The position numbers and the translations under genes are program-made. Positions 814 through 35,627 of a stretch of 36,956 nucleotides of DNA are shown in pieces (the first letter of the stretch is position 1; every line of letters starts with the position of its first letter). Location: assembly GCA_021161045.1 (NCBI GenBank), contig JAGHBJ010000074.1, positions 1 through 36,956 of the forward strand, given 5' to 3'. The stretch comes from Candidatus Bathyarchaeota archaeon. Its GTDB lineage: Archaea; Thermoproteota; Bathyarchaeia; TCS64; B23. A model generated the notes under the pieces. The model searched no databases. It worked only from the letters and a program-made list of their open reading frames with translations, and was not told where the DNA came from.

Positions 814-1668
814 TCAAGTAGGTAGGAGAGGCTTCGCATTCTCTCCAAGTATGGCTTCGAGTTCTTTGATGGGTATCTCAAGCTCTGGGTTGACGGCGTA
901 TTGATTGATGGATAGGAGCATCTCGACATATTCGGCCTGCTTTATCCCTGGGTAGTCTGTGCCGAAGACTATGTGATCTAGGACTCCAAGGTTCAAGGCT
1001 TTCAAAAGGTCTCTCCATAGGAAGTATCGGTAGCTTGGATGCCTTATGTCGCCGTAGATCCAGCTTATGTCGAGCCAGATGTTCCCATGCTTCCTGGCGA
1101 GGTAGAGGGTTTCATCGACCCTTGGATAGCCTAGGTGGGCGAGGATTATCCTCAGCCTTGGAAAGCAGGCGGCCACCACATCGATCTGCTCTGGATCAGT
1201 ATGCCTCAAAAGGGCCTGTGGCTCCGGCATCCCAGCGTGGTGGAACATAACCGGCATCTCCATCTCCTGAGCCATCTCATAAACCCTGAAGGCCTTTGGA
1301 TCATCAGCCCTATATCCATCGAGGGTTGGATAGAGCTTCAAGCCATACAGGCCGAGCTCCTCTCGCTGCCTCATCACCTCCTCTGGAGCCTCAGGCCTCA
1401 AGGGGTTGACGTATCCGAAGCCTATTAGGCGATCTGGGGCGGCTGAGATGAACTGGGAGACGGCCTCAGGCGGTGTTCGGCGGTCTGATAGTATGACGGC
1501 CATATCGAAGCCTGCGGCGTCGAGGTCTGAGAGGAGCTCCTCCCTTGAGATCCTCACTATCCTAGGATGTCTTGGGTCTGTATATTCGACGATGGAGATG
1601 TGGCAGTGTATATCGATCTTCAATCCTTCCCTCGGCCTCTCAGCCTTCATCACGGCTTGGATCGCCAT
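814..1668 (-). CDS. metal-dependent amidohydrolase (Amidohydro_2 TIM barrel)
   Basis: DIHCH, GLKLYP, MFHH, ILAHLG and FGTDYP motifs. Confidence 0.88.
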   Translation of the reverse strand: MAIQAVMKAERPREGLKIDIHCHISIVEYTDPRHPRIVRISREELLSDLDAAGFDMAVILSDRRTPPEAVSQFISAAPDRLIGFGYVNPLRPEAPEEVMRQREELGLYGLKLYPTLDGYRADDPKAFRVYEMAQEMEMPVMFHHAGMPEPQALLRHTDPEQIDVVAACFPRLRIILAHLGYPRVDETLYLARKHGNIWLDISWIYGDIRHPSYRYFLWRDLLKALNLGVLDHIVFGTDYPGIKQAEYVEMLLSINQYAVNPELEIPIKELEAILGENAKPLLPT

Positions 1669-1680
1669 GATGGTTCACCG

Positions 1681-2436
1681 TTAGAAGATGATGGAGAGGC
1701 AGGTTAGGGCGCCTTCGCATTTCGTGAATTCGCTGACGTCTAGGGTGATGACATCGAATCCGGCTTCCCTCACCATCTCAACGGCTCTGGGATACCCCTC
1801 AGGCATGAGGACGACGTCGCCTATGGAGAGCGTGTTGGCGGCATACCACTCCTCATCTGGGACTATGAGCTTCTCAAAGGGTTTGAGGACGGGGTGATCG
1901 GCGTATTTCCTCGTCGTGATCATGATTCCTCTGCCGAGGTAGGTGATGTAGCTCTTCAAGTGGACGATGCTTGGATCCTCTATGGTCTCCACGGGGACGT
2001 TCAGCCACTCCCTCATCTGGGCTACTCCCTCAGCGTTAGTCCTCTCCGTCAACCCCGAGATCAACCTATCCGGTAGATGTATGACATCGCCTCCCTCTAT
2101 GGTGGCCGGCGGCTCAGCCCGTTTCACAGGCATATACTGCCTCAGAACCTCCTCCACAGCCGTCTCCTCCCCCCTCCTGCTGGGCTTAGCCATCCTGCAG
2201 ATGAGGGCTCGGCCGCCGTGGACGACGGCGTTATCCTCAACGAAGCAGGAGTCCGGATGCTCATCGTCCCTCGGCAGCCTGATGATCTCTAAGCCCAACT
2301 CCTCCAATACCCTACAATACTTGGCATGCTGCTTCCTCGCCCTCTCCACGTTGATGGTATGCCTCAATGGATGCGATGATATGCATCTTGGATAGGTGGC
2401 TCCAGGCTCCCTAACCAGCGCCCTCTTGGGAGTCAT
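1681..2436 (-). CDS. N(G),N(G)-dimethylarginine dimethylaminohydrolase-like protein (amidinotransferase superfamily)
   Basis: PDSCFVEDNAV, SRRGE, IEGGDV, HLKS and C-terminal GALTCLS catalytic Cys; 251 aa is typical of DDAH. Confidence 0.88.
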   Translation of the reverse strand: MTPKRALVREPGATYPRCISSHPLRHTINVERARKQHAKYCRVLEELGLEIIRLPRDDEHPDSCFVEDNAVVHGGRALICRMAKPSRRGEETAVEEVLRQYMPVKRAEPPATIEGGDVIHLPDRLISGLTERTNAEGVAQMREWLNVPVETIEDPSIVHLKSYITYLGRGIMITTRKYADHPVLKPFEKLIVPDEEWYAANTLSIGDVVLMPEGYPRAVEMVREAGFDVITLDVSEFTKCEGALTCLSIIF

Positions 2437-2458
2437 GTTGAATCCTACTCATCAATAT

Positions 2459-2473
2459 GATAAAGGATTTATC
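2459..2473. promoter_or_regulatory. back-to-back TATA-like elements of the divergent DDAH-like / ADI-like promoters
   Basis: GATAAA-GGA-TTTATC inverted repeat gives TTTATC on each strand about 23-28 nt before each start codon. Confidence 0.55.
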
Positions 2474-2490
2474 TCCAGAACTCTTTTCAA

Positions 2491-3429
2491 ATGGGAGCTG
2501 AGATGGAGTTCGGCGCACAATCAGAGTATGGAAGGTTGAGGAAGGTCTTGATGCATAAGCCCTCGGAGCATCTGAGGAGGGTGACACCTCAGACGAAGGA
2601 TCACTACCTCTTCAGAGACATCGTCTATTGGAGGGAGTTCGTCAGGGAGCATGAAGCCTTCGTAGAGGCCCTCAGAGGCGAGGGGGTGGAGGTCTATCTG
2701 CTGGGGGAACTACTCGAAGAGGAGGATAGACGCATAGCGGAGCTGATGCCAGACCTCGTCTACACGAGGGACATCTGCAGCGTCACAAATCTCGGAGCCA
2801 TAAGGATGAGGATGCGACATCAGGCCAGATACGCTGAACCCCTCCTGGCCGAGAGGGCGATGAAGAGGCTGGGCATACCCATCGCGCTGAGAGTTAGGCA
2901 TCCAGCCTACCTGGAGGGTGGAGACCTCGTCTACCTCGACCCCGAGACACTGCTCATCGGCTTCGGCCCGAGGTCAGATGAGGGAGGAGTCGAGGCGGTG
3001 AGGGAATTGCTGCTTGGCAAAGCCGTAAAGGAGCTGGTGGCCGTCACCCTACCAAGCTTCAGGGTTCACCTCGATGGAGCCTTGATGATCCTCAGCCGAG
3101 ACCTAGCGGTAATCCATAAACCCTCCCTGGAGCTATACCCAGCCTGGATCTACAGGGGGGACGGGGAAGTGGAGCTGGCCTTCATCGAGGACTACCTTAA
3201 GGAGAGGGGCCTCGACATCATCTACGTCGACGATTGGGAAGTTCGAAACTTCGGCACCAACATCCTCGGCATAGGCGACGGGAAATACGTCACCTACGAG
3301 TGGAATGAGCGGGTTAAGAAGCTGCTAGAGGAGAGAGGGTTCGACGTCATCGGCATCCCAGGATGCCAGCTCAGCCTCGGCGGAGGCGGCCCTCACTGCA
3401 TGACCTGCCCCATACTCCGAGTGCCTTAA
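2491..3429 (+). CDS. arginine deiminase-family protein (short form, amidinotransferase superfamily)
   Basis: SEYGRLRKVLMHKP N-terminus, YTRD, LEGGD, HLD and GGGGPHCMTCP; 312 aa, shorter than canonical ~410-aa ArcA. Confidence 0.85.
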   Translation: MGAEMEFGAQSEYGRLRKVLMHKPSEHLRRVTPQTKDHYLFRDIVYWREFVREHEAFVEALRGEGVEVYLLGELLEEEDRRIAELMPDLVYTRDICSVTNLGAIRMRMRHQARYAEPLLAERAMKRLGIPIALRVRHPAYLEGGDLVYLDPETLLIGFGPRSDEGGVEAVRELLLGKAVKELVAVTLPSFRVHLDGALMILSRDLAVIHKPSLELYPAWIYRGDGEVELAFIEDYLKERGLDIIYVDDWEVRNFGTNILGIGDGKYVTYEWNERVKKLLEERGFDVIGIPGCQLSLGGGGPHCMTCPILRVP

Positions 3430-3443
3430 TGTCCTAAATATAA

Positions 3444-3476
3444 CAAAATTTATCTCTCTTTGCACCAATTAGTGCA
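3444..3476 (+). promoter_or_regulatory. BRE/TATA-like element plus palindromic candidate operator upstream of the ArcE-like gene
   Basis: CAAAATTTATC followed by TGCACCAATTAGTGCA (3461-3476, 14/16 self-complementary) ending on the A of the ATG. Confidence 0.45.
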
Positions 3477-4807
3477 TGATGGCTCGGAGAGTCGTCATCC
3501 TAGGAGCGGCCGGTAGGGATTTCCATAACTTCAACGTATACTTCAGGGACAACCCCCAATACGAGGTTGTGGCCTTCACGGCGGCTCAGCTTCCAAACAT
3601 CGCCGGTCGAATCTATCCGCCGGAGCTGGCTGGTGAGCGATACCCTGATGGGATACCGATACTCCCCGAGGAGGAGCTCCCAAGGCTGATAGGGGAGGAG
3701 AGTGTCGAGCTGGCGGTTCTCTCCTACAGCGACCTCCTCTACGAAGATGTGATGAAAAAGGCCTCAGAGATTCTGGCGCTGGGAGCCGACTTCATGCTCC
3801 TAGGCCCAGGTTCGACGATGCTGAAGTCTAAGCGTCCGGTGATCTCCATCTGCGCCGTCAGAACCGGAGCGGGGAAGAGCACCGTCACCAGGAGGGTTCT
3901 GCGCATACTGCTGTCAAAGGGCCTAAAGCCCGTCGCCATCAGACATCCCATGCCCTATGGAGACTTGGCCAAGCAGGCTGTTCAACGATTCGGAGATTTC
4001 GAGGATCTCGACCGCTATGAGTGCACCATCGAGGAGAGAGAGGAGTATGAACCCATCATAAGGCTGGGAGTCCCCCTCTACGCAGGCGTCGACTATGAGG
4101 GCATCATCAAAAAGGCTGAGGAGGAGGGAGACCTAATCGTCTGGGATGGAGGAAACAACGATCTACCCTTCTACAGGCCGGATCTCCACATCGTCGTGGC
4201 AGACCCCCTGAGGCCTGGACATGAATTGAAGTCCTATCCAGGGACGGCGAATGCGATGATGGCCGACGTCTTCATAGTGAACAAGGTGAACGTCGCAGAC
4301 AGGGAGTCGATTGAAACCGTCAAGGAGAATCTGAGAAAGCTGAATCCGGAGGCACCCATCATCGAGGCAGAATCCATCATCTCGGTTGATAGACCTGAAC
4401 TAATAGAGGGTAAACGCGTCCTCGTCGTCGAGGATGGGCCTACGGTCACCCATGGAGGCCTCGGCTACGCAGCTGGATACGTCGCGGCGAGGGAGTTTGG
4501 GGCCGCTGAGATCGTCGACCCCCGACCCCACGCCGTCGGCTCCCTGAAGGCCGTCTATGAGGAGTATCCCCAGCTTAGGGAGGTATTACCCTCCATGGGC
4601 TATGGCCGTGAGCAGATGAGGGAGCTTGAGGCCTCAATCAACGCCGTTGACTGCGACGCCGTCGTCCTCGGAACTCCCAGCCACCTGGAGAGATTCCTGA
4701 AGCTGAACAAACCCGTCGTCCACGTCTCCTTCGAGCTGAGGGAGACAACAAAGCCGGATCTCGAGGAGATCGTCAGCCGCTTCCTCTCTGAGAGGGGCTT
4801 AATCTAA
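3476..4807 (+). CDS. arcE: arginine synthetase (ArcE)-type P-loop enzyme; COG2403, often annotated as cyclic 2,3-diphosphoglycerate synthetase or GTPase
   Basis: N-terminal GAAGRDFHNFN, AVRTGAGKS P-loop, RHPMPYGDL, EEREEYE, WDGGNND, EDGPT and PSMGY; lacks the DGEHYP start of true CpgS. Confidence 0.75.
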   Translation: MMARRVVILGAAGRDFHNFNVYFRDNPQYEVVAFTAAQLPNIAGRIYPPELAGERYPDGIPILPEEELPRLIGEESVELAVLSYSDLLYEDVMKKASEILALGADFMLLGPGSTMLKSKRPVISICAVRTGAGKSTVTRRVLRILLSKGLKPVAIRHPMPYGDLAKQAVQRFGDFEDLDRYECTIEEREEYEPIIRLGVPLYAGVDYEGIIKKAEEEGDLIVWDGGNNDLPFYRPDLHIVVADPLRPGHELKSYPGTANAMMADVFIVNKVNVADRESIETVKENLRKLNPEAPIIEAESIISVDRPELIEGKRVLVVEDGPTVTHGGLGYAAGYVAAREFGAAEIVDPRPHAVGSLKAVYEEYPQLREVLPSMGYGREQMRELEASINAVDCDAVVLGTPSHLERFLKLNKPVVHVSFELRETTKPDLEEIVSRFLSERGLI

Positions 4808-4818
4808 CCTCCTCCTTT

Positions 4819-5640
4819 TTACAGCCTCAGCCCATAGGGCATGAGGACTCCATCGATGTAGACTCCGCCCTCACCGTCGAGGGCTATACGCCCCTCAGCG
4901 ATCATCTGAAGCGTCAATGGATAGATGACCCAGTCCCCATGCCTCTTCAACCTGTTCTGATTCTCCCTCACAACCTTCTCCAGGAGCTCCTTATCCCTCT
5001 TTAGGTCTTCGAGGGTTACGCCTTCGGGGAGTATGACGGGGACGGGCTTAGATCTCACCAGTATCTCGCCGTAATCCACCTTCTCCCTAACCACATGCGT
5101 CGTCGAGTATAGGTATCGCTCACCGGCGAGGATGGCGTCCCTAACGGCGTGGAGGCCTACATATTTGCGTCTGCCACCCTCCATGATGGATAGGTCTGCC
5201 GGATGGACGTTCACGATCCTCCCAGGATACCTATCGAGGAGAGGCTTCGTTATGATGCTCATATACCCAGCTAAGGCGATGACATCAATGTTGTATGGCT
5301 CTATCCTCCTGGCCACCTCCTCATCGTATATGGGCCTAAGCGTCAGATCCCTCTTCGTTTTGCGACCGTGACTCCTATAGAAGTCGAGGATGTCTATACA
5401 CTCATAGGGGACTCCATACTCCTCGGCGATGTCCAAAGCCCTACAACGCTTCTCACCACTTCGATCCAGGCGGTCATCCCTAACATCGGTAAAGATTAGA
5501 ACTACCTCATATCGGGCATCCTCCTCAAGGGAGCGCTCGATGATCTTCCTCGTATTCGTCCCAGAGCCGGACATGAAGCAGGCAACCCTCATGCGACGCC
5601 CGACACTTGGATCGAAGATCGGCGTCACAGCCACTTTCAT
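4819..5640 (-). CDS. purN: formyltransferase, PurN (GAR transformylase)-like with insertions
   Basis: SGSGTN, LAGYMSI, NVHP and HVVREKVDYGEIL motifs; likely start MKVAV at 5640 rather than 5766. Confidence 0.75.
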   Translation of the reverse strand: MKVAVTPIFDPSVGRRMRVACFMSGSGTNTRKIIERSLEEDARYEVVLIFTDVRDDRLDRSGEKRCRALDIAEEYGVPYECIDILDFYRSHGRKTKRDLTLRPIYDEEVARRIEPYNIDVIALAGYMSIITKPLLDRYPGRIVNVHPADLSIMEGGRRKYVGLHAVRDAILAGERYLYSTTHVVREKVDYGEILVRSKPVPVILPEGVTLEDLKRDKELLEKVVRENQNRLKRHGDWVIYPLTLQMIAEGRIALDGEGGVYIDGVLMPYGLRL

Positions 5641-5672
5641 CCATCCCCCATCATAGAGTGAATCCGCATCCC

Positions 5673-5680
5673 TTTTAAAA
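5673..5680. promoter_or_regulatory. palindromic TATA box TTTTAAAA between divergent genes
   Basis: Lies about 25-40 nt from both the 5640(-) and 5705(+) starts. Confidence 0.5.
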
Positions 5681-5704
5681 GAGGGGGAGACGCCCAAATT
5701 AGGG

Positions 5705-5830
5705 TTGAAAGGCGACAGCCTCGATATACTCGTCGTCTGTAAGAGATGTGGACATCTAGTCCCCAAGACTCAGCTCTGCATCTACTGTGGAGCTCCAATA
5801 CTCTATAGGCCTCCAAGGGGTAGGAGCTGA
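5705..5830 (+). CDS. 41-aa Cys4 zinc-finger micro-protein
   Basis: Manual translation from TTG at 5705: MKGDSLDILVVCKRCGHLVPKTQLCIYCGAPILYRPPRGRS*; two CxxCG knuckles and an upstream TATA box. Confidence 0.75.
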   Translation: MKGDSLDILVVCKRCGHLVPKTQLCIYCGAPILYRPPRGRS

Positions 5831-5868: not shown

Positions 5869-6696
5869 TTGAAGGTTTACATATCCATCGATATGGAGGG
5901 TATAAGCAGCATCGTCGACTGGAGTCAGGTTGACCCTAGGAATAAGGAATATGAGCGGTTTAGGAGGCTGATGGTCGGCGACCTGAATGCAGCCATAGAG
6001 GGCGTCCTGGAGGCTGGGGCTGAGGAAGTTGTGGTCGCTGATTCACATGGGCGTATGAGCAACCTCCCACCGGAGGAGGTTCACGAAGCAGCGGTTCTCA
6101 TCAGAGGCTCCCCGAGGCCATGGCTGATGATGGAGGGAATCGACGACGGCTTCGACGCAGCCCTCTACGTCGGCTACCACTCCATGAAGGGAACCGAGCG
6201 GGGAGTCCTCTGCCACACCATCTCAGGCCGTGTCGTCGATGCGGTTTACATCAACGGCGTGGAGATGGGGGAGTTCGGCCTGAACGCGGCCCTAGCGGGA
6301 TGGCATGGAGTCCCCTCCATCTTCATCTCAGGAGATCAAGCCGTCGTCGAGGAGGCTAGGAGACTGGTGCCGAATATCAGGGGCGCAGTCGTCAAATGGG
6401 GTGTCAGCCGATACGCCGCGAGATGTCTACACCCCGCCAAGGCGAGGAGACTGATTAGGGAGAAGGCCTCAGAAGCCCTAAAGGCCCTCGATGAATTCAA
6501 GCCCTTCAAGGTCGAGGAGCCGGTTGAGGTGAGGATGAGATTTGCAACCTCGACGATGGCCGATGTCGCGGCTTTGATACCCTACGCCGAGAGGGTGGAT
6601 GGCAAAACCATCAGGATGGTCTTCGACGACTATCCAACGGCCTTTAGGGGAGTTAGAACCGCTATCGCCGTCGCCTATCCAGTTGAGGAGCGGTGA
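5869..6696 (+). CDS. dppA: M55 family D-aminopeptidase (DppA-like)
   Basis: KVYISIDMEG, DSHG, MMEG, VGYH, HTIS, GEFGLNA and ISGD motifs. Confidence 0.92.
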   Translation: MKVYISIDMEGISSIVDWSQVDPRNKEYERFRRLMVGDLNAAIEGVLEAGAEEVVVADSHGRMSNLPPEEVHEAAVLIRGSPRPWLMMEGIDDGFDAALYVGYHSMKGTERGVLCHTISGRVVDAVYINGVEMGEFGLNAALAGWHGVPSIFISGDQAVVEEARRLVPNIRGAVVKWGVSRYAARCLHPAKARRLIREKASEALKALDEFKPFKVEEPVEVRMRFATSTMADVAALIPYAERVDGKTIRMVFDDYPTAFRGVRTAIAVAYPVEER

Positions 6697-7228: not shown

Positions 7229-7892
7229 GATGGAGGCGGCTAGGCTTCTATTGGCCTTCACAGCTGGCGTTCTATCTCCCCTCTCACCCTGCTCCCTGCC
7301 GCTGCTCCCCTCCTACATCGCGTATTATCTCACAGCCGTCGACGCCCATCGGCTTCGAGGTGGACTCACCCTGGCGTTTACAACCCTCCTAGGCTTCCTA
7401 TCCGTCTACACCCTAATTGGATTCGTCCCATCACTCGCCCTTGGATTCATCCCCCTCAGCGAGAGGGTTTTGAACCCTATCTTCGGCGTTATACTAATCC
7501 TATTAGGCCTCATCACCTATCGGAGAGGCGGTCTCACCCTGTCGGGTATGCCGCATCCAGCTCCACCTGAAGCCGGGGGCCTATTATCCTTCTATCTCTT
7601 CGGCGCAATCTATGCGGTGTCCTCCCTCGGCTGCTCCCTCCCCGTCTTCCTCCTACTAGTCTTCACCTCCGCGGGGGCAGACCTCAACGCCGTGGCGCCC
7701 CTCTACGTCTCCTATGCCCTCGGTTGCGCAGCCCTATTCATACCCCTCTCCCTAGCCGTCGCCTACTCCAAAAGCTATCTAATAGAGAGGATTAGGGGTA
7801 TGGGGGGAATCATCTCCAAAGCTACGGCTTACATATTGATGGCCGCTGGAGTATACATGGCTCTCTCACCCCTCCTCTATGGGAGTGTATAG
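7221..7892 (+). CDS. ccdA: CcdA / DsbD-beta transmembrane disulfide interchange protein
   Basis: About 6 TM segments with SPCSLPLLPSY and SLGCSLP Cys motifs; overlaps the upstream TlpA gene. Confidence 0.88.
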   Translation: MSEMEAARLLLAFTAGVLSPLSPCSLPLLPSYIAYYLTAVDAHRLRGGLTLAFTTLLGFLSVYTLIGFVPSLALGFIPLSERVLNPIFGVILILLGLITYRRGGLTLSGMPHPAPPEAGGLLSFYLFGAIYAVSSLGCSLPVFLLLVFTSAGADLNAVAPLYVSYALGCAALFIPLSLAVAYSKSYLIERIRGMGGIISKATAYILMAAGVYMALSPLLYGSV

Positions 7893-8505
7893 AATCGAAG
7901 GCGTCGAGATCATGGATGTAGTCGGGAGAGCCGAGTTTGAAAGATTTCTATGGAGATGTATCTCACCTATGCCCTATAGACGATATAGGAGGCGGGGTGA
8001 ATACCTAGAGAGGGCTATTCCAAGTGAGAAAGGAGATTCTATTCCTCCACGGCGATGCCGTAGGCCAGATCGAGTATGCGCCGCCGGAGGCCTCGGGCTA
8101 CCCGATAAGTGGAGAGGGATCTGGGTGATGAACTGTATCTGGGTTCTGAGGAGAGCTGGAGGTAGAGGCCTGGGGAGGATGCTCATGAATAGAATGCTGA
8201 GGAATATCGGGGAGGCTGCTGGCGTAGCCACCATCGCCCTAGAGGGGCATCACAGCCCCTGGCTTAAGCTGAGGCAGATGGAGTATCTCGGCTTCAAATC
8301 CATAGACCATAGGAGGCTTAGGCATAGGGTTAAGCGGAGAGACGTCTGCTTAACCCTCCACCTGATGTGGATGCCCCTGAGACCTGGGGCCAAGCCTCCG
8401 GAGATGGATTGGGCTGAGATGCTTAGGAGAGTCGACTTCTGCCTCGCCCATCCGCTATATAGGGCTGAGAGCTGGAGTCTCGACGTCGTCTATGAGCCAT
8501 GCTGA
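7879..8505 (+). CDS. GNAT-family acetyltransferase (YoaP-like) with an internally frameshifted segment; possible pseudogene
   Basis: NCIWV..R.GGRGLGRMLM acetyl-CoA motif is in frame, while 8024-8120 reads RKEILFLHGDAVGQIEYAPPEASGYPISGEG only in the +1 frame. Confidence 0.7.
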   Translation: MGVYRIEGVEIMDVVGRAEFERFLWRCISPMPYRRYRRRGEYLERAIPSEKGDSIPPRRCRRPDRVCAAGGLGLPDKWRGIWVMNCIWVLRRAGGRGLGRMLMNRMLRNIGEAAGVATIALEGHHSPWLKLRQMEYLGFKSIDHRRLRHRVKRRDVCLTLHLMWMPLRPGAKPPEMDWAEMLRRVDFCLAHPLYRAESWSLDVVYEPC

Positions 8506-9524
8506 TGGGGCTCGATGACCACCTTCAACGACTCACCGGCCCTCTCCACCAATCTGAAGCCCTCAGCTATTCGACCCAGGGGAAGTCGATGCGTAACCAT
8601 CTCCTCAGCCTCCACCCGCCCATATCTGATGAGATCAAGCGCCGTCAATAGATCGGATGGCGCCGCCGCATAGCTGCTGGTCATCGTCAGCTGCCTCATC
8701 CAGAAGTCGTTGAAATCGAGGGGGAGCTCCACCCCCGGCGGCGTCGGGGCGAAATAGAGTATGCGCCCCCCATCCTCAGCACAGCTGGCCGCAGCCTTAA
8801 TGGCTTCAAGAGCCGCCGTGCAGACTATCACCCTATCAGCTAGACGACCATCATTTGCCTCCCTAACCTGCTGGGATAGAGGCCTCCTCGCATCGAGAAC
8901 CACATCGGCCCCGAAGCGCTCGGCAGCCCTCATCCTATACTCATTTATATCCGCGGCGATGATGGGGCCGGCGCCCTTAACCCTGGCCAACTGTATGTGG
9001 AGTATGCCGGCCACTCCGCTTCCGATGATGAGAACCGAATCCCCAGGCCCAAGGCCTAGCTTCCTCTGACCCCTGACTACACAGCCCAAAGGCTCTATGA
9101 GGACTCCGTCGAGGAAGGAGACCTCAGGGGGGAGCTTGAAGACGCCTCTATCAACGTTGATGCGGGGCACCCTGGCATACTCGGCGAAGCCTCCAGGGTC
9201 TATGTTGGTTCTATGCAGCGTCTCACAGGCTGTATGCTCGCCTCGGAGGCATCTTCGACAGGTGTTGCAGGGGACGTGATGCGATACGAAGATTCGGTCT
9301 CCGACCTCGAAGCCCTCAACCCCCTCGCCGACCTCCTCGACGACGCCGACGACCTCATGCCCCAAAACCCTCGGAGCCTTAGGCACCCTATACCACTCCA
9401 TAACATCGCTGCCGCAGATTCCACAGGCTTCAACCCTCATCAGAAGCTCCCCAACCCCTATGCGGGGCAGAGGCATCTCAACGACCCGTATATCCCGATT
9501 GTTGTAGTAGAGGGCAGCCCTCAT
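8490..9524 (-). CDS. Zn-dependent medium-chain alcohol dehydrogenase (sorbitol/threonine DH-like)
   Basis: CGICGSD, GHE, CNTCRRC...C structural Zn site, EPLGC and GSGVAG Rossmann motif. Confidence 0.92.
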   Translation of the reverse strand: MRAALYYNNRDIRVVEMPLPRIGVGELLMRVEACGICGSDVMEWYRVPKAPRVLGHEVVGVVEEVGEGVEGFEVGDRIFVSHHVPCNTCRRCLRGEHTACETLHRTNIDPGGFAEYARVPRINVDRGVFKLPPEVSFLDGVLIEPLGCVVRGQRKLGLGPGDSVLIIGSGVAGILHIQLARVKGAGPIIAADINEYRMRAAERFGADVVLDARRPLSQQVREANDGRLADRVIVCTAALEAIKAAASCAEDGGRILYFAPTPPGVELPLDFNDFWMRQLTMTSSYAAAPSDLLTALDLIRYGRVEAEEMVTHRLPLGRIAEGFRLVERAGESLKVVIEPHQHGS

Positions 9525-9668
9525 ATCAGATGGATAGGGCCGCCAGGCTTAATTCCTTTCCCATAGAGGGAGGGGGTCTATCCCAGGGGAGTCAGATTTA
9601 AACTCCTCTTATAATTTGGAGCTCCATAATCCGCCGATTTCCCCTGGATTTCACATCCTTGTTCACGT

Positions 9669-10166
9669 TTAGAGGGGCCAGTGTATTCGCCTTGAGGTCG
9701 TATAGCGCTGCTTCCACCTCAAACCCAACCCGATCTCGACGACCTCTGGGAGTATATGCCTAACGAAGTGTTCACTTGGCCTTCCAGGTTTTATGCCCTC
9801 GCAGTGGGGGTCGAGGTAGATGTGGAGGGTTTTACCCCTATAATTGTAGGCTGAGCCGTCTTCACGACTGTATATGGGCCTCATATAGATTCTGAACGGA
9901 TAGAGCTTGCAGGCGAGGGGCTTCATCGATTGGAGGGTGCAGACCCATCGGCCTAGTATTGGTCTGAGGAACACACATCGATTATCAGGCCCCCTCCTCA
10001 GGTAGACCTTCCCCATCCCCACCTCGACGACGTCGTAGCCGTAGAGCTTCGTTATCCTGATATACTCATCCATCTTCAGCGGAACCCTATAGCCTATACA
10101 GCAGCGTCCGCAGGCGGTGCACTCCCATGTCCTCACCTCCCTCCAGGGGATGAGGCCCCTCTTCAT
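9669..10166 (-). CDS. YkgJ-family cysteine-cluster (CxxCxxCC) protein
   Basis: CTACGRCC...CVFL...CTLQ..KPLACKLYPF. Confidence 0.85.
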   Translation of the reverse strand: MKRGLIPWREVRTWECTACGRCCIGYRVPLKMDEYIRITKLYGYDVVEVGMGKVYLRRGPDNRCVFLRPILGRWVCTLQSMKPLACKLYPFRIYMRPIYSREDGSAYNYRGKTLHIYLDPHCEGIKPGRPSEHFVRHILPEVVEIGLGLRWKQRYTTSRRIHWPL

Positions 10167-10221
10167 CCGCAGAGAAGAGAGGGGAGATGCCTAAATATCT
10201 TACCTTAAGTTAAAACCTTGA

Positions 10222-10606
10222 TTGAGATGCCCTCAGCCTCACTTCATCTTCCTCGCGGAGACAGCTCTGGCTCTGTCGACGAATCGTAGACTTGGGCCAG
10301 AGTCACAGAGAGAGAGAGAGATCAGCCTTAGGATGTTAAGAGGGGGTTCTTCTGCTCCTAGAGATCTTCGTGGTCTCACCGGCCTTCAGCTCTCAGCCGA
10401 CATACTTGCTTGGCGTGATGGGTCTCGGATGGTGCTTCGACATCTACCTCCTTAGACATCGCTCAGACCCCAGGGCCTTAACCCTAAAGCTCATCGGCGT
10501 CGGCGTCCTGGCCCACATACTCTGGCTGCTGGTCAGATGGCTGAATGCCTATGTCACCCATCCCCACCTAGTCACAATCTGCTCAGGCGTCGGCAGGCCC
10601 GTGTGA
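10222..10606 (+). pseudogene. probable degraded membrane-protein gene remnant
   Basis: Hydrophobic coding-like pieces in two frames (FIFLAETALAL; VLLLLEIFVVSP...LIGVGVLAHILWLLVRW) joinable by a 1-nt slip in the G5 run at 10342-10346. Confidence 0.4.
10307..10321. repeat. (AG)7A dinucleotide simple repeat
   Basis: agagagagagagaga read directly. Confidence 0.85.
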
Positions 10607-11935: not shown

Positions 11936-12913
11936 CTAAATCTCCCTGCTCACACCCCTCTCCCTAGCCAGCCTATAGACCTTATAGGCGGTTCCGACAT
12001 CCTGTATAGCCAGCCCCGTCGCCTTGAAGAGGGTTATCTCCTCGTCGCTCTCCCTCCCAGGCTTCAAACCCGCGACTATCTCACCCATCTCGGCGTAGAC
12101 ATCCTCCTCCCTTATAGCCTCCTCCTTCAAGGGTATGGCAAAGTCGCCGACGATGAAGGCTTGAGGCTTGAAATCCACAACGATCTTATCAGCCCTCGTT
12201 AGGACGCTGGTCTCAAGCTCCCTCTTCGCTGCGGTGTCAGCCCCTATGGCTGAGATATGAACTCCAGGGCTGAGCATATCGCCGCTTAGGAAGGGCCTCT
12301 GAGACGGGGTACAGGTGACGATTATATCCGCATCCTTCACGGCCTCCTCCACTGACTCGGCCTCCCTGATGTCTATGCCCGTCTTCCTGCTCATCTCCTC
12401 TACGTAGCGCTTCCTCGCGGAGGGGATGACGTCATAGACCTTCACCTCCTCTATGGGTCTGACCTCGCAGAGGCCGAGGAGCTGTGAGCGGCCCTGGACT
12501 CCGCAGCCGATGATGGCTGCCGTCTTCGATTTCTCCCTGGAGAGATATTTGGCTGCGACGGCTCCCGCAGCCCCTGTTCTCATCGCCGTGATGTAGGTTC
12601 CATCCATTATGGCGAGGGGCTCCCCCTTCGCGGGGTCGTTGAGGATGATGCGGGCGATGACGGCTGGCAGTCCATGCTTCTTTGGATTGTCGGGGTGGAC
12701 GGTCACCACCTTGAGTCCTGCTGCGTCCAGCGGCTTTATATAGGCTGGCATAGCTATGAGGATCCCATTGTATTTCTCGAAGTGGAGGTAGACTCTCGGC
12801 GGCATCTCTATGTTGCCTAAGGCCATCTCCCTGAAGGCTGACTCCACCGCCTCTATGGCTCCCTTCATGTCTAGCAGTGATTCAACCTCCTCCTGTGTAA
12901 GGTATAGGGTCAT
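11936..12913 (-). CDS. ornithine cyclodeaminase / mu-crystallin family (archaeal alanine dehydrogenase-like)
   Basis: [33 protein letters not shown] and TGLAIQD motifs. Confidence 0.9.
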
Positions 12914-24744: not shown

Positions 24745-25230
24745 ATGGGTAGAAAGGGTCGGGAAATAGTGAAGGTTGATGTGGGGGAGCTGATAGAGCT
24801 TCTGAAGAAGGCCTACGCGGATGAGTGGATCGCCTACTATGCCTATAAGTGGATCGCGAAGATGGTTCATGGCCCTGGTTCCCCCCATATCGCCGAGTTA
24901 GCTGAGAAGATCGCGGAGGAAGAGGAGGAGCATGCTAACGAGCTTGCTGAGAGGATCCTAGAGCTTGGTGGAGATCTCCCCTATGGAATCGAGAAGCTCT
25001 ATGAGATCGCGAACTGTAAGACGGTGAAATACCCTGAAGATCTAAACGACCTTAAGGGGATATTAGAGGCCCTCGCGGAGGCCGAGGCCTGCGCCATCGA
25101 GGTATATAACAAGATATTGAATTGGTTAAGCCCCTGCTACGAGAAGGACGTCAAGACCTTCCATCTCATCGAGCACATCCTCTCCGAGGAGATAGCCCAC
25201 GAGGAGTCCTTCGAGAATCTAATAGAATAA
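24745..25230 (+). CDS. dpsL: DPS-like (DpsL) ferritin-superfamily protein
   Basis: LL..AYADEW..YY.Y, EE.EHA, RI.ELGG, AE.CAI and EEI.HE; Cys pair (IANC, EACA) consistent with the thioferritin motif. Confidence 0.85.
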   Translation: MGRKGREIVKVDVGELIELLKKAYADEWIAYYAYKWIAKMVHGPGSPHIAELAEKIAEEEEEHANELAERILELGGDLPYGIEKLYEIANCKTVKYPEDLNDLKGILEALAEAEACAIEVYNKILNWLSPCYEKDVKTFHLIEHILSEEIAHEESFENLIE

Positions 25231-25244
25231 ACAACCAGCAACTC

Positions 25245-25264
25245 TCTTTTTATTCTTTAAAAAA
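25245..25264. terminator. bidirectional T-rich terminator region between convergent dpsL and dfx
   Basis: TCTTTTTATTCTTT on + immediately followed by AAAAAA (T-tract on -). Confidence 0.45.
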
Positions 25265-25276
25265 GGAGATGTTATT

Positions 25277-25654
25277 TCACCTACTCATCCATAGACCGTG
25301 TAGATTACAGTAATCCCTAGCCTTCAAGATCTCCTCATCGGTCTTGAAGACTGCCTCGGGCTTATCACCAGGCTTGAGGAATCTCACCATCACACCCTTC
25401 TCGGTCTCAACCTCTATCCACTCTATGTAGTGATCCTCCTCCATGGGATGTGGGATGGAGCCGATCTTAACCCTCACCTCTCCCCCAACCCTCTCAACGA
25501 CGGGTAGATGCTTCTCATAGCCACTCTCCTCTCCCTTCTCCTCCATCAGCCTCATAGGCTGACCACAGCAGACGAGCTGTCCAACGCCGCTATGCATCAC
25601 CAGAACGATGTTGCCGCAGATATCGCATTTATAGATCTGTAGCTTCTCAGTCAT
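25277..25654 (-). CDS. dfx: desulfoferrodoxin (class I superoxide reductase)
   Basis: YKC..CGNIV...LVCCG centre I; EKHLP, HPM...HYIEWI and CNLHG centre II. Confidence 0.96.
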   Translation of the reverse strand: MTEKLQIYKCDICGNIVLVMHSGVGQLVCCGQPMRLMEEKGEESGYEKHLPVVERVGGEVRVKIGSIPHPMEEDHYIEWIEVETEKGVMVRFLKPGDKPEAVFKTDEEILKARDYCNLHGLWMSR

Positions 25655-25656
25655 TT

Positions 25657-26847
25657 CTACTCCTCCTTTATTCCAATCTCCTGATGCTTATTTAAGATCT
25701 CTTCAGCTAATCGATCTATTCTCTCGAGATCTCTTTCCCTAGCCTTTCCCTTGATTTCTATCGAATCTATGATCTCCGCTTGGAGGCCTGATAATGTCTC
25801 CCTCAACATCTTCAGTGTTCTCCCGCCCCAGGCGTAGGAGGTTATGAGGACGATGTATCTCAGCTTAGGTCTGAGGGCGTTGATGATGTGAGCCGCGTAT
25901 AGTATGCTTGGATGGGGGCCTCCAAGCACCGTTGGAGATGCGACCACGAGGGTTGCGGCGTCGACGAGGGCGATTGCCAACTCGCCAATGTCCGTCACCG
26001 TGAGGTTGAAGGGCTTCACCCCTATGCCCCGCTCCATCAAGGCGTCGACAAGTCGGGCAATCATCTCCCCCGTGCTTCCATGCATGGAGACGTATACGAT
26101 GACGACCTCGTTCTCCACCTCATCTGAGATCCAGTGCTCATAGGCCTTGAGTATGAAGGAGGGGTCTCTATAGATCGGGCCGTGGCTCGGAGCTATGACG
26201 TCTACCTCCAGCTCCCTGATCCTCTCCAAGTGTCTGCGTATGACGGCTCTGAAGGGCATCATGATCTCGGCGTAATATCTCTTCGCAGCCTCATAGACCT
26301 CCCCCTCGTCTCTGACTGAGAGATCGCTGGTGGCGAGGTGGGAGCCAAAGAGGTCGCAGGTGAAGAGGATTCGCTGCTCCCTCAGATAAGTCAACATGGT
26401 CTCAGGCCAGTGAACCCAGGGGGCGTGAATGAACTCCAGGGTTTTATCCCCCAGCGATAGCTGCTCCCCATCTTCAACCGTCTTGATCCTCTCCTCGGGG
26501 AGGTGGAGGAGATCCATGAGGAGCTCCCTACACCTCGGCGTTGCGACAACCGATGCCTCGGGATAGGCTTCCAGGATCTCGGGTATACCACCCGAGTGAT
26601 CCTGCTCAGCGTGATTTGCGACGACGTAGTCTATCCGTTCTATGTTCAGATCCCGAAGGGAATCGAGGAGTCTCTCAACCTTAGAGGGATCTACGGTGTC
26701 TATTAACGCCACCCGCCTGTCTCCCTGAATTAAATACGCGTTATAGCTTGTCCCATCGGGGAGGGGTATCAACTCGTCGAAGAGTCGTCTATCCCAGTCT
26801 AGAGCTCCAACCCAGTAGACTCCCTTAGCCACTTTCCGCGGAGCCAT
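25657..26847 (-). CDS. fprA: flavodiiron protein FprA (O2/NO reductase)
   Basis: GTSYNAYLI, NHAEQDHSG, HWPE, CDLFG, PSHG and flavodoxin-domain YVSMHGST motifs. Confidence 0.95.
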   Translation of the reverse strand: MAPRKVAKGVYWVGALDWDRRLFDELIPLPDGTSYNAYLIQGDRRVALIDTVDPSKVERLLDSLRDLNIERIDYVVANHAEQDHSGGIPEILEAYPEASVVATPRCRELLMDLLHLPEERIKTVEDGEQLSLGDKTLEFIHAPWVHWPETMLTYLREQRILFTCDLFGSHLATSDLSVRDEGEVYEAAKRYYAEIMMPFRAVIRRHLERIRELEVDVIAPSHGPIYRDPSFILKAYEHWISDEVENEVVIVYVSMHGSTGEMIARLVDALMERGIGVKPFNLTVTDIGELAIALVDAATLVVASPTVLGGPHPSILYAAHIINALRPKLRYIVLITSYAWGGRTLKMLRETLSGLQAEIIDSIEIKGKARERDLERIDRLAEEILNKHQEIGIKEE

Positions 26848-26849
26848 CC

Positions 26850-27011
26850 TTAATTCCCCAGCTTCTCGAAGAGATCCTTGCCGACGCCGCAGATGGGGCA
26901 GACCCAGCTCTCAGGCAGCTCCTCGAAGGGGGTTCCAGGCTCAACTCCTGAATCGGGGTCGCCAACCTCTGGGTCGTATATATATCCGCAGATAGAGCAT
27001 CTCCACTTCAT
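26850..27011 (-). CDS. rub: rubredoxin
   Basis: Not in the ORF track. Manual translation: [53 protein letters not shown]; GGTGA SD-like sequence upstream. Confidence 0.97.
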
Positions 27012-27056
27012 ATTCATCACCATATCAATCTTTCATCGTCGATAAAAAGTTAGGGA

Positions 27057-27632
27057 TCAATACTCCTCGCAGAGGATCTCGAAGTAGGTCCAGGAGTGTC
27101 CGCAGGAGGGGCATCTCTCCGGAGGCTCCGTGCCCTCATGGACGTAGCCGCATTTACGACACTTCCATCTCACAGCCTTATCCTTCTTGAAGACAGTTCC
27201 CCTCTCCACGTTCTCTAGGAGCTTTAGGAATCTCTCCTCGTGATGCTTCTCTGCGACGGCTATGGCTCTGAGGGTGGCGGCGATCTTATTGAAGCCCTCT
27301 TCCTCCGCCACCTTGGCGAACTCGGGGTACATCTCGGTATGCTCGTATCGTTCACCCTCAGCGGCGGCTCTCAGGTTCTCGGCGGTGCTTCCGATCTTTC
27401 CTGCTGGATAGGAGGCGGTGATCTCAACGAGGCCTCCTTCAAGGAGTTTGAAGAGGGTTTCCGCATGCTCCCTCTCATTCTCGGCGGTTTCCAGGAAGAT
27501 GGCTGCGATCTGCTCATAGCCCTCCTTCCTCGCCTGGGAGGCGAAGAAGGTGTATCGGTTTCGGGCCTGGGACTCTCCTGCAAAGGCTATCAGGAGATTC
27601 TTCTCGGTTCTGGTTCCCTTTAGGCTCTTCAT
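27057..27632 (-). CDS. rbr: rubrerythrin
   Basis: AFAGESQARNRY, E.EHA, GE.YE...MYP, EKHH and C-terminal WKCRKCGY...CPSC. Confidence 0.96.
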   Translation of the reverse strand: MKSLKGTRTEKNLLIAFAGESQARNRYTFFASQARKEGYEQIAAIFLETAENEREHAETLFKLLEGGLVEITASYPAGKIGSTAENLRAAAEGERYEHTEMYPEFAKVAEEEGFNKIAATLRAIAVAEKHHEERFLKLLENVERGTVFKKDKAVRWKCRKCGYVHEGTEPPERCPSCGHSWTYFEILCEEY

Positions 27633-27720: not shown

Positions 27721-28149
27721 ATGCTCGACGAGATCGATCTGAGGATCATAGAGCTGTTGATGGAGGATGGACGGAGACCCTACACGGAGATGGCTAAGAA
27801 ACTTGGCCTAAGCGAGTCAACGGTGAGGAAGAGGATTCAGGCCCTGGTGGAGGAGGGGGTGATTAGGCGTTTCACGGTGGAAGTGGAGCCCTCGAAGCTA
27901 GGCTTGAGAACCGTCGCCATAGTAGGCGTCGATGTGGAGCCTCCTAGGCTGCTGGAGGTGGCTCAGAGCCTTTCACAGCTTCGGGAGGCGAGATGGGTGG
28001 CCACCTCAACTGGTGATCACATGATCATGATGGAGGTCTGGACTAGGGATGGCCGAGCCCTGACGCGGTTGATCTCTGAGCGTATAGGTGGAATCGAAGG
28101 CGTTAAACGGGTCTGCCCAGCGATAATCCTGGAGAGGTTGAAGGGTTAG
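27721..28149 (+). CDS. lrpA: Lrp/AsnC transcriptional regulator (LrpA/Ptr2-like)
   Basis: LDEID..I...L..DGR, LGLSESTVRKRI..L...GVI HTH; STGDHMIM and VCPAII.E features of the LrpA/Ptr2 clade. Confidence 0.9.
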   Translation: MLDEIDLRIIELLMEDGRRPYTEMAKKLGLSESTVRKRIQALVEEGVIRRFTVEVEPSKLGLRTVAIVGVDVEPPRLLEVAQSLSQLREARWVATSTGDHMIMMEVWTRDGRALTRLISERIGGIEGVKRVCPAIILERLKG

Positions 28150-34271: not shown

Positions 34272-35627
34272 CTACCCCCTCAGCTCCCTCTTCACCTCAC
34301 CTATGGATTTGTAGAGTCTATCAACGATCTCGTCAACCTCGCCGTGGCCGACGATGAGGGGTGGAGCCACCTGTATGTGGTCGCCCCTAACTCCATCTAC
34401 GGTTCCAGAGCCTGGATAAATGAGGAGGCCATTCCTCAGGCAGGCCTCGTAGACCCTCTGGTGAACCCTCTTCTCGGGTGGGAAGGGTTTCTTAGATTCT
34501 CGATCGGCGACGAACTCTATGCCCGCGAAGAGTCCTAGGCCTCGGACATCGCCGACGATGCCATAATCATAGAGGTCTTGAAGCCTCCTCAGTAGGTGTC
34601 TCCCCATCTCCGCCGCCCTCTCTACGAGGTTGTGCCTCTCAATATACTCCATCACTGCCAATCCGACGGCGCAGGCGACGGGATGCCCCGTATAGGTGTG
34701 GCCGTGAAAGAAGGGGCTCTTAAAGGCTTCATAGACCCTCTCAGATGCGACGGCGGCTCCAAGGGGTATGTAGCCGCTGGATAGGCCCTTGGCCACAGCC
34801 ATTATGTCGGGTTCTACGCCGTAATGTTCGAGGGCGAAGCGTCTACCGGTTCTGCCGAAGCCCGTCATCACCTCATCGGCGATGAATAGAACCCCATAGC
34901 GATCACATATCTCCCTGATTATCTTGAAGTAGTCCTCAGGCGCTGGAACGGTTCCAAGGGTGGCCCCCACAACCGGCTCGGCGATGAAGGCTGAGACATA
35001 CTCGGGGCCAACAGCCTTTATAGCCGTCTCCAAGGCCCAGGCACATTCGAGGTCACAGCTCTCAGGGGTCTTCCCAAACCAGCATCGATAGCAGTAGGCG
35101 GGCGGTATATGGGGGAAGTCAAGCAGCATGGGTGTGTAGAGCCTCCGCCTCTGGATATTCCCAGACATCGATAGGGCTCCAAGGGTGTTGCCATGATAAC
35201 TCTGCCATCGAGCTATCACCTTATATCGACTCCCCTCACCCCGTTCTAGGTGGTATTGCCTCGCCATCTTGGCGGCTGACTCCGTGGCCTCCGAGCCTCC
35301 ACAGCAGAAGAAGACCCGTGTAAGGCTTGGAGGCGTGAACTCAGCTAGCTTCTCCGCACATTTCACGACGACCTCAACGGCGTGGTGGAAGCTGTGGGCG
35401 AAGGGGAGCCTCTCCAACTGCTTTAGGGCTGCATCCCAAACCTCCCTGACGCCGTAGCCGATGTTTACGCAGATGGGCCCTGAGCTCCCATCGATGTATC
35501 GATTACCGGCCTCATCCCAGACGTAGATGCCCTCCCCCCTCACCAGCTTCAGCAATGGGCCTGAACCCCTAGAGAAGAGCCTCGTCTCCACGGGGTCTAG
35601 GAAGGGTTTTCCGTCCACTGCCATCAA
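34272..35627 (-). CDS. class III PLP (omega-amino acid / BioA-like) aminotransferase
   Basis: GEG.YVWD..G..YID, GGSEATE, SYHG.T, AFIAEPV, ADEVMTGFGRTG, AKGL and HGHTY motifs. Confidence 0.93.
   Translation of the reverse strand: MMAVDGKPFLDPVETRLFSRGSGPLLKLVRGEGIYVWDEAGNRYIDGSSGPICVNIGYGVREVWDAALKQLERLPFAHSFHHAVEVVVKCAEKLAEFTPPSLTRVFFCCGGSEATESAAKMARQYHLERGEGSRYKVIARWQSYHGNTLGALSMSGNIQRRRLYTPMLLDFPHIPPAYCYRCWFGKTPESCDLECAWALETAIKAVGPEYVSAFIAEPVVGATLGTVPAPEDYFKIIREICDRYGVLFIADEVMTGFGRTGRRFALEHYGVEPDIMAVAKGLSSGYIPLGAAVASERVYEAFKSPFFHGHTYTGHPVACAVGLAVMEYIERHNLVERAAEMGRHLLRRLQDLYDYGIVGDVRGLGLFAGIEFVADRESKKPFPPEKRVHQRVYEACLRNGLLIYPGSGTVDGVRGDHIQVAPPLIVGHGEVDEIVDRLYKSIGEVKRELRG

Follow-up and report, generated by a model that had tools for sequence, protein, structure and literature searches.

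Why should the gene for an arginine synthetase, ArcE, lie directly behind a gene of the arginine deiminase (ADI) family, when the work that introduced ArcE in 2024 presented it as a substitute for arginine deiminase that conserves energy (Michimori, Yokooji and Atomi, PMC11032458)? The question is raised by a stretch of 36,956 nucleotides from Candidatus Bathyarchaeota archaeon (assembly GCA_021161045.1, contig JAGHBJ010000074.1), hereafter 'the window'. Three neighbouring genes of this window code for a hydrolase of the dimethylarginine dimethylaminohydrolase (DDAH) family, a short hydrolase of the ADI family and an ArcE orthologue (below, the DDAH-like protein, the ADI-like protein and ArcE). 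The reading that we favour, tentatively and at slightly less than an even chance, is that they make up a genus-specific module, in which citrulline would be produced from arginine by ArcE and the short ADI-like protein in parallel, with a further input from the DDAH-like protein, and would feed ornithine transcarbamylase (OTC) and carbamate kinase (CK). An original prediction, made from the letters of the sequence, had the three enzymes meet at citrulline, and this is plausible by family and conserved residues; it also had one of them excluded as a true deiminase, a point on which we come to a different view.

The source genome amounts to about 1.26 Mb in 137 contigs, is estimated to be 97% complete, and includes the window as its contig C119. 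The nearest named relatives of the window proteins come from metagenome-assembled genomes (MAGs) of Bathyarchaeota/Bathyarchaeia, and DNA nearly identical to the region is present in marine sediment and hydrothermal vent metagenomes. The four open reading frames (ORFs) named in the original prediction were all recovered, at the coordinates listed here with the features around them:

814-1668, - strand: metal-dependent hydrolase/decarboxylase family gene, Amidohydro_2 (PF04909), 284 aa; Pfam E = 3.8e-40
1681-2436, - strand: guanidino-group hydrolase of the DDAH family, 251 aa; from the ADI/DDAH families of Pfam and NCBIfam and the alignment with Pseudomonas aeruginosa DDAH
2437-2490: divergent intergenic region of 54 bp with A/T-rich TATA-like elements, from the sequence, ATGATAAAGGATTTATCTCC
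2491-3429 (start possibly 2503), + strand: short ADI-family hydrolase, 312 aa; PF02274, E = 8.8e-43
3430-3475: spacer of 46 bp with TATA-like boxes, from the sequence, CCTAAATATAACAAAATTTATC
3476-4807, + strand: ArcE orthologue (arginine synthetase), a P-loop protein of 443 aa; from orthology to Thermococcales homologues
4819-5766, - strand: PurN-like formyltransferase, from Pfam and NCBIfam; a synteny anchor, not argued to be a member of the pathway
5869-6696, + strand: M55 D-aminopeptidase (DppA-like); Pfam E = 2.9e-105; the second synteny anchor

The three predicted enzymes

On sequence grounds, the 443-aa P-loop protein is a clear ArcE orthologue. Pfam and NCBIfam gave a weak match only, to the cobW/HypB P-loop, and the assignment was made by comparison with named Pyrococcus and Thermococcus homologues rather than with TK2200, the Thermococcus kodakarensis ArcE, itself: the protein is 61 to 62% identical, over 98 to 99% coverage (630 to 636 bits), to proteins of P. 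furiosus, P. horikoshii and T. litoralis. An alignment of nine sequences (the window protein with Thermococcales and other archaeal homologues) had 174 invariant columns, among them G10, A11, G13, R14, D15, F16 and H17 of the N-terminal GAAGRDFHNFN stretch and R129, T130, G131, G133, K134 and S135 of the Walker A motif (RTGAGKS); the use of these two motifs as family markers is based on the original prediction and on this alignment, not on a curated model. The alternative identity, cyclic 2,3-diphosphoglycerate synthetase (CpgS), was rejected, since the solved CpgS chains (8ork, 8oru, 9sxb) gave weak and partial matches only (21 to 35 bits, E = 5.9e-08 to 1e-03), the best of which (E = 5.9e-08) was confined to residues 209-323, against full-length orthology to ArcE. 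The prediction of an ArcE-type rather than a CpgS-type enzyme is thus borne out, CpgS being a distant P-loop relative and not a member of the same family; many database entries bear the CpgS name.

The activity predicted for the window protein, by virtue of this orthology, is that of TK2200/ArcE, Arg + ADP + Pi <-> Cit + NH3 + ATP (PMC11032458). According to that source, the reaction has K = 10.1 toward citrulline, the enzyme is slow unless ADP accumulates, and its reversibility sustains arginine synthesis from citrulline in vivo; arcE homologues occur throughout the Thermococcales, and ADI and ArcE show a largely complementary distribution across genomes. A tree was also calculated by a quick maximum-likelihood method for 35 ArcE sequences. 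In this unrooted tree, the window's genus groups with family f4 (support 99) and stands apart from the clade of family f2 (support 100) and from f3, all of the same order. ArcE is therefore not monophyletic in the order, which fits with events of acquisition or replacement.

The best solved relatives of the ADI-like protein are arginine deiminases (E = 2e-25 to 4e-23), followed by DDAH-1 (5e-04). It is about 100 aa shorter than ArcA (about 400 to 420 aa); its residues 4-77 align to residues 4-77 of Streptococcus pyogenes ADI (4bof), and its residues 76-310 to residues 148-408. The intact catalytic motifs that had been noticed in this protein and in the DDAH-like protein were upheld by alignment to solved structures. 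Compared with 4bof and 1rxx, YTRD, EGGD, HLD and HCMTCP are kept, together with the Arg of GPRS and the Arg of ARYAEP, and C303, H193, E142, D94, D195, R113 and R161 align with their counterparts in both structures. From P. aeruginosa ADI, we take C303, H193 and E142 to be catalytic, D94 and D195 to be the guanidino-binding Asp residues, and R113 and R161 to be the carboxylate-binding Arg residues. In 55 diverse short-family sequences, D94, R113, E142 and C303 never vary, and R161, H193 and D195 hardly do. ArcA enzymes of P. aeruginosa (1rxx, 2a9g), Mycoplasma arginini (1lxy, 1s9r) and S. pyogenes (4bof) have the same catalytic and substrate-binding residues and are its best structural matches (E = 1e-24 to 2e-25), and the two guanidino-binding Asp residues of ADI are named in PMC9007349. 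Because both of these Asp residues and both carboxylate-binding Arg residues are kept, an unsubstituted guanidino amino acid is favoured as substrate over methylarginine or citrulline; it would most likely be L-arginine, or a very close compound of this kind, converted to citrulline and NH3.

The guanidino-group modifying enzymes (GMEs) include a third paralogue, on contig C91 of genome G000 (844-1875, + strand). This protein of 343 aa is 29 to 33% identical to the ADI-like protein, has the motifs YTRD, HID and HCLT, and its gene adjoins one for a LigT-type phosphoesterase. The putative citrullinase CtlX (Price et al. 2022, PMC9007349) has the same fold as ADI and acts on the arginine, citrulline and ornithine node; its signature is Asn in place of both Asp residues, with FPNN/HTN instead of FTRD/HLD. 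A citrullinase reading was rejected for all three GME paralogues, which have YTRD/HLD (ADI-like), FVED (DDAH-like) and YTRD/HID (third paralogue) and none of which has FPNN/HTN. With the Asp residues kept in the window proteins, a ureido substrate is unlikely for them. The original proposal that the ADI-like protein acts on methylarginines or citrulline is for these reasons not favoured: its conserved Asp and Arg residues point to an unsubstituted guanidino amino acid, and the CtlX signature is missing.

A full scan of 1.84 billion cluster representatives yielded 3505 relatives of the ADI-like protein. The top-ranked ones are about 290 to 340 aa long, and proteins of about 400 to 420 aa appear from E of about 1e-35 on. 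Ten short-family representatives were looked up, and every listed cluster member came from an uncultured genome; the naming of family members varies between 'arginine deiminase family' and 'DDAH family'. A literature search, limited to open-access full text, returned no characterised short-form ADI. The real start of the gene may be at 2503, since M5 corresponds to the first residue of the orthologues.

The DDAH-like protein finds its best NCBIfam match in the dimethylargininase model NF045660, with 180.4 bits against a cut-off of 340 (NF045658: 158.1 bits against 450). Its residues 29-251 align with P. aeruginosa DDAH (3rhy, 1h70; E = 7e-42), a protein of the same length, and the catalytic Cys, His and Glu as well as the substrate-binding Asp and Arg are aligned; FVED, SRRGE, EGGD, RTNAEG, VHLK and the C-terminal Cys are all kept. 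The second guanidino-binding Asp is absent in DDAH, which has HLK, unlike the ADI-like protein with its HLD. The protein is predicted to release citrulline either from arginine or from an arginine substituted at N-omega, and its substrate is most likely to be N-methylated arginines from protein breakdown, which is a weaker inference than that of L-arginine for the ADI-like protein. It differs from the Streptomyces-type DDAH of NF045660 in scoring below the equivalog cut-off and in belonging to an archaeal lineage whose members are 64 to 78% identical. Many archaeal MAGs have relatives in this range of identity, as does at least one bacterial genome, and the protein was found in 34 of 41 related genomes. 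One relative, P0512, named from the bacterium Candidatus Moduliflexus flocculans, is 65% identical; such a value between domains is an unusually high conservation for a predicted hydrolase of 251 aa. The Amidohydro_2 gene has the same orientation as the DDAH-like gene and lies 12 nt behind it. Such a neighbour was seen only in the window's genus (L063, L064, L143-L145) and at none of 11 loci of other genera, and a conserved DDAH and Amidohydro_2 operon was rejected.

Gene order in the genus and beyond

Gene neighbourhoods were surveyed on three scales: 41 genomes of the same order were searched with each of the three proteins, and 37 loci were inspected; species-representative genomes were scanned with a 14-sequence alignment of the short family, and the best 80 of 206 loci were analysed; and a metagenome scan for short-ADI loci gave 18 loci. 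The three genes are adjacent only in the window's genus. Genomes G000, G001 and G005 have all three in the cluster, and in G004 the end of a contig carries the ADI-like gene with ArcE; in other genera, the three genes are on separate contigs or hundreds of kilobases apart. Among the best 80 loci, ArcE was at most 6 kb from the short-ADI gene in 3 and the DDAH-like gene in 2, each of these loci belonging to the window's genus, and in the metagenomes the cluster was found at 3 of the 18 loci, each with at least 94% identity. It is retained at 83 to 99% protein identity among the genus members and the three metagenome contigs. The survey, which the original prediction had called for, found no conserved trio beyond the genus; the adjacency comes close to being unique to this genome, an outcome that had been named as refuting, in that it is confined to one genus, yet it occurs in several of its members. 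A second lineage with the cluster is possible: one and the same Logan contig, with 30,594 bases, is the longest listed for two relatives, P0123 of the ADI-like protein (76%) and P0414 of the DDAH-like protein (78%).

Comparison with the other genera points to how the cluster arose. There, the ADI-like gene is followed on the same strand by a stand-alone aminoacyl-tRNA editing domain gene of the tRNA_edit family (PF04073, YbaK type), then by the convergent PurN-like gene and by the M55 gene in the forward direction. In the window's genus, the DDAH-like gene diverges from the ADI-like gene, which is followed by ArcE, the convergent PurN-like gene and M55. ArcE thus sits exactly in the tRNA_edit slot, with the DDAH-like and Amidohydro_2 genes divergently upstream. 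Among 38 Bathyarchaeia loci outside the genus, tRNA_edit is on the same strand as the ADI-like gene and at most 250 bp from it, or overlapping it, in 16, and within 6 kb in 23; the PurN-like gene is within 6 kb in 27. Of 9 candidates, 7 were assigned to the tRNA_edit family by Pfam; PF04073 genes of other genera are located at L038:5522-5992 (-), L039:5534-5992 (-), L040:6924-7409 (+), L042:5532-5939 (-), L045:7003-7386 (+), L047:6926-7375 (+) and L048:5541-5990 (-). The window's own genome has one tRNA_edit relative, on a different contig and only 31 to 39% identical. The cluster is young, as ArcE occupies the tRNA_edit slot and the trio is adjacent in one genus only. On each side of the ADI-like gene, a gene related to citrulline was recruited independently, and from this we infer selection for clustering rather than chance.

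The intergenic regions have also been maintained. A/T-rich TATA-like elements lie about 20 to 30 nt upstream of the start codons of the DDAH-like and ADI-like genes, and probably serve as promoters; the 54-bp divergent region is conserved in all four aligned genus members, including the genome that has no ADI-like ORF. TATA-like boxes about 22 to 40 nt upstream of the ArcE start are kept in five of five genus members. The genome without the ORF is that of a sister species (G003, contig C26; L037:5286-5589), where a clean deletion of the ADI-like gene has spared the intergenic elements on both sides, along with short remnants of its ends, and where ArcE and the DDAH-like gene were kept. This loss fits with overlapping function.

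Other neighbours were recorded farther afield. In G007, of a related family, ArcE (L052 on contig C44, 6001-7305, + strand) is directly followed by carbamate kinase (7349-8296, + strand), with an arginyl-tRNA synthetase gene in convergent orientation (8348-10288, - strand); elsewhere, ArcE has purE/purC, alanine racemase or LigD primase-polymerase genes as neighbours. Among Asgard and other non-Bathyarchaeia relatives of the ADI-like protein (40 to 48% identity), an arginase-family gene precedes the short ADI-like gene at 7 loci, and a polysaccharide-deacetylase-family gene follows within about 30 bp at 12 loci (examples of such neighbours are L101:4743-5603, + strand, and L115:6959-7735, + strand). 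Several relatives have in-frame TAG stops, and once TAA, inside otherwise intact matches to the DDAH-like protein, the ADI-like protein or ArcE (G001:C90:2727-3479, G012:C74:4497-5405, G017:C4:24938-25855, G026:C1:384229-385563); these could be pseudogenes, assembly errors or recoding.

Presence and absence were scored over the 41 related genomes, an orthologue of the ADI-like protein being counted at 55% identity or more, partial and split copies included. Both it and ArcE were found in 18 genomes, the ADI-like orthologue only in 8, ArcE only in 10 and neither in 5; about 17.8 genomes with both are expected by chance, a comparison that is descriptive only since the genomes are related.

Elsewhere in the window, an oxygen-stress gene cluster (24745-27632) codes for a ferritin-like protein, a desulfoferrodoxin, an ODP/metallo-beta-lactamase protein (flavodiiron-like) and a rubrerythrin; it is followed by a gene for an Lrp/AsnC regulator (27721-28149).

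Citrulline use and the competing readings

As had been noted, the window has no OTC or carbamate kinase gene, and both are on other contigs of the same genome. The search for arcB, arcC, argG and argH proposed in the original prediction located two OTC genes (one of them adjoining argG), carbamate kinase and argH, all outside the window; argG is split over two contig ends, and the genome also has pyrB. Neither carB nor carA, for carbamoyl-phosphate synthetase (CPS), was found in this genome, estimated at 97% completeness. Among the relatives, carB is present in 7 of 41 genomes and in 0 of 6 of the genus, and CK in 33 of 41. In T. kodakarensis, which has no CPS, ArcE and OTC supply carbamoyl phosphate for pyrimidines and for hydrogenase maturation, and CK is no substitute for that supply (Michimori et al. 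2026, PMC13260591). With OTC and CK present and CPS not found, the window's genome resembles T. kodakarensis. The likeness extends to ArcE itself, in full-length orthology with the Thermococcales homologues, N-terminal motif and Walker A. The differences are that here ArcE is away from arcB and arcC, with an ADI-family gene immediately before it and a DDAH-family gene close by, and that the genome additionally has argG and argH. The window also contains, 7 kb from ArcE, a gene of the ornithine cyclodeaminase/mu-crystallin family (11936-12913, - strand; E = 4e-104) and, at 34272-35627 (- strand), a class-III aminotransferase gene; their products could be takers of citrulline-derived ornithine.

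In the module that we favour, the three enzymes would converge on citrulline, with ArcE and the ADI-like protein running in parallel. ArcE would act near equilibrium (Arg + ADP + Pi <-> Cit + NH3 + ATP), gated by ADP and conserving energy; the short ADI-like protein would convert free L-arginine to citrulline and NH3 irreversibly and independently of energy charge; and the DDAH-like protein would release citrulline and methylamines from the N-methylated arginines of degraded protein. Citrulline would then pass to either OTC and on to carbamate kinase, the genes for which lie elsewhere, and would yield ornithine, ATP and carbamoyl phosphate. As to origin, ArcE would have taken the place of the tRNA-editing gene behind the ADI-like gene, and a divergent DDAH-like gene would have been added upstream. 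It had been argued that ArcE leaves no room for a true deiminase next to it, which would be redundant or part of an ATP-wasting cycle. We do not find this compelling: the ADI-like protein keeps all the binding residues of arginine deiminase, and ArcE, in its favoured direction from arginine to citrulline, runs parallel to a hydrolytic deiminase, so that no futile cycle is expected (K = 10.1; PMC11032458). We also consider it possible, though doubtful, that Bathyarchaeia have two routes from arginine to citrulline, an irreversible short deiminase of an uncharacterised family and the ADP-gated, ATP-conserving ArcE, which this genus has set in tandem as a 'gear shift'; the DDAH-like protein would add methylarginines to the pool, and the arrangement would secure both ATP and carbamoyl phosphate where, as in most of this order, CPS is lacking.

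A number of observations weigh against the module. Some concern the ADI-like protein itself, which scores 158.5 bits with the arcA model TIGR01078, where the cut-off is 489.1 (with NF002381, 163.5 bits against 414), and which lacks the helical insert of ADI, a stretch of about 70 residues. In a FastTree tree of 143 sequences, it falls in a mostly short clade (support 92), with 35 short proteins among 38 rows; beside this stands the clade of long ADIs (support 97), in which 68 of 73 rows are long. The branching order is tentative, as the tree was rooted on a single DDAH-like sequence. From its sequence, the protein is a member of an uncharacterised short branch of the ADI family and not a canonical ArcA, from which it differs in all these respects and in that its gene is never beside arcB or arcC at the best 80 loci. 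The neighbours in Asgard archaea and Culexarchaeia hint that the short family may handle other guanidino compounds. Others concern conservation: the trio was adjacent in none of 35 genomes of other genera of the order, at 0 of 77 loci outside the genus among the best 80 of 206 from species genomes, and at 0 of 15 more distant metagenome loci. Neither OTC, CK, argG nor argH was within 6 kb at any of the 80 short-ADI loci, and a conserved link of the short-ADI gene to arcB or arcC was rejected. The ADI-like protein and ArcE are distributed independently in the order; plain redundancy of the two is disfavoured, because it would predict a complementary pattern, as reported for ADI and ArcE in PMC11032458. 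Finally, the conserved TATA-like boxes ahead of ArcE suggest that it probably has its own promoter and is transcribed on its own. On the side of the module, ArcE is covered in full by Logan contigs from two RNA libraries of one sample, and a contig spanning 3302-4808 runs from the last part of the ADI-like gene across the spacer and through ArcE, a weak hint of read-through; these contigs cover an 8-kb stretch at low depth (28 of 30 bins in X5, 19 of 30 in X6), may result from DNA carry-over, and show neither expression level nor a single transcript.

Could the adjacency then be a by-product of local rearrangement that has no meaning for a pathway, each gene doing its own job as it does in other genera? 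This is a serious rival, which we nevertheless rate as unlikely. It would account for the limitation of the trio to a single genus, for the older and wider partnership of the ADI-like gene with tRNA-editing, PurN-like and M55 genes, for the unrelated neighbours of ArcE elsewhere, for its probable promoter and for the mutual independence of ADI-like and ArcE occurrence. It sits less well with the retention of the arrangement across genus members down to 83% protein identity and with the conserved intergenic elements of the cluster; and that two genes for forming or using citrulline should flank a third in a genome of about 1.26 Mb is an unlikely coincidence, a judgement made without a formal statistic. 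The original prediction saw instead a salvage route, in which the hydrolases make citrulline from methylarginines or other guanidines and ArcE spends one ATP to return it to arginine. This agrees with the placement of the 1681-2436 protein in the DDAH family, as it does with the non-complementary distribution of the ADI-like protein and ArcE, the arginase-family genes beside Asgard short-ADI relatives, and the reversibility by which ArcE supports the step from citrulline to arginine in vivo (PMC11032458). We find it improbable all the same. The ADI-like protein keeps both Asp residues for unsubstituted terminal nitrogens and both carboxylate-binding Arg residues, the second Asp being absent in DDAH (HLK); citrulline to arginine is already covered by argG and argH; the ArcE equilibrium is toward citrulline and ATP (PMC11032458); and G003 lost the ADI-like gene and kept the two others.

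The tRNA-editing neighbour suggests one more reading: the short ADI-like protein might detoxify an arginine analogue, or be an amidinotransferase, working in most Bathyarchaeia with a YbaK-type trans-editing partner encoded immediately behind it, which ArcE would have replaced here. The frequency and tightness of the tRNA_edit association in Bathyarchaeia outside the genus, and the Pfam confirmation of most candidates, speak for it. However, tRNA_edit stays paired with the PurN-like gene even where the ADI-like gene is 1.5 to 3.6 kb off (L076, L083, L084, L087, L104), and so its link with the ADI-like gene may be inherited gene order only. Relatives outside Bathyarchaeia have no tRNA_edit neighbour, save for a weak match (30% identity) about 2 kb off in L102, and the sequence points to neither a particular analogue nor an acceptor. 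We give this reading a very slight chance, and the genus-specific module keeps our tentative preference.

What is new at this locus is an ArcE orthologue in tandem directly behind a gene of the ADI family. Should the short ADI-like protein prove to be an arginine deiminase, the picture of either ADI or ArcE would need to be revised for these sediment archaea. If it is not, a family of Bathyarchaeia, Asgard archaea and Culexarchaeia that is routinely annotated as arcA would be misread in metabolic reconstructions. The function of the short ADI family bears on the origin of carbamoyl phosphate in lineages without CPS.

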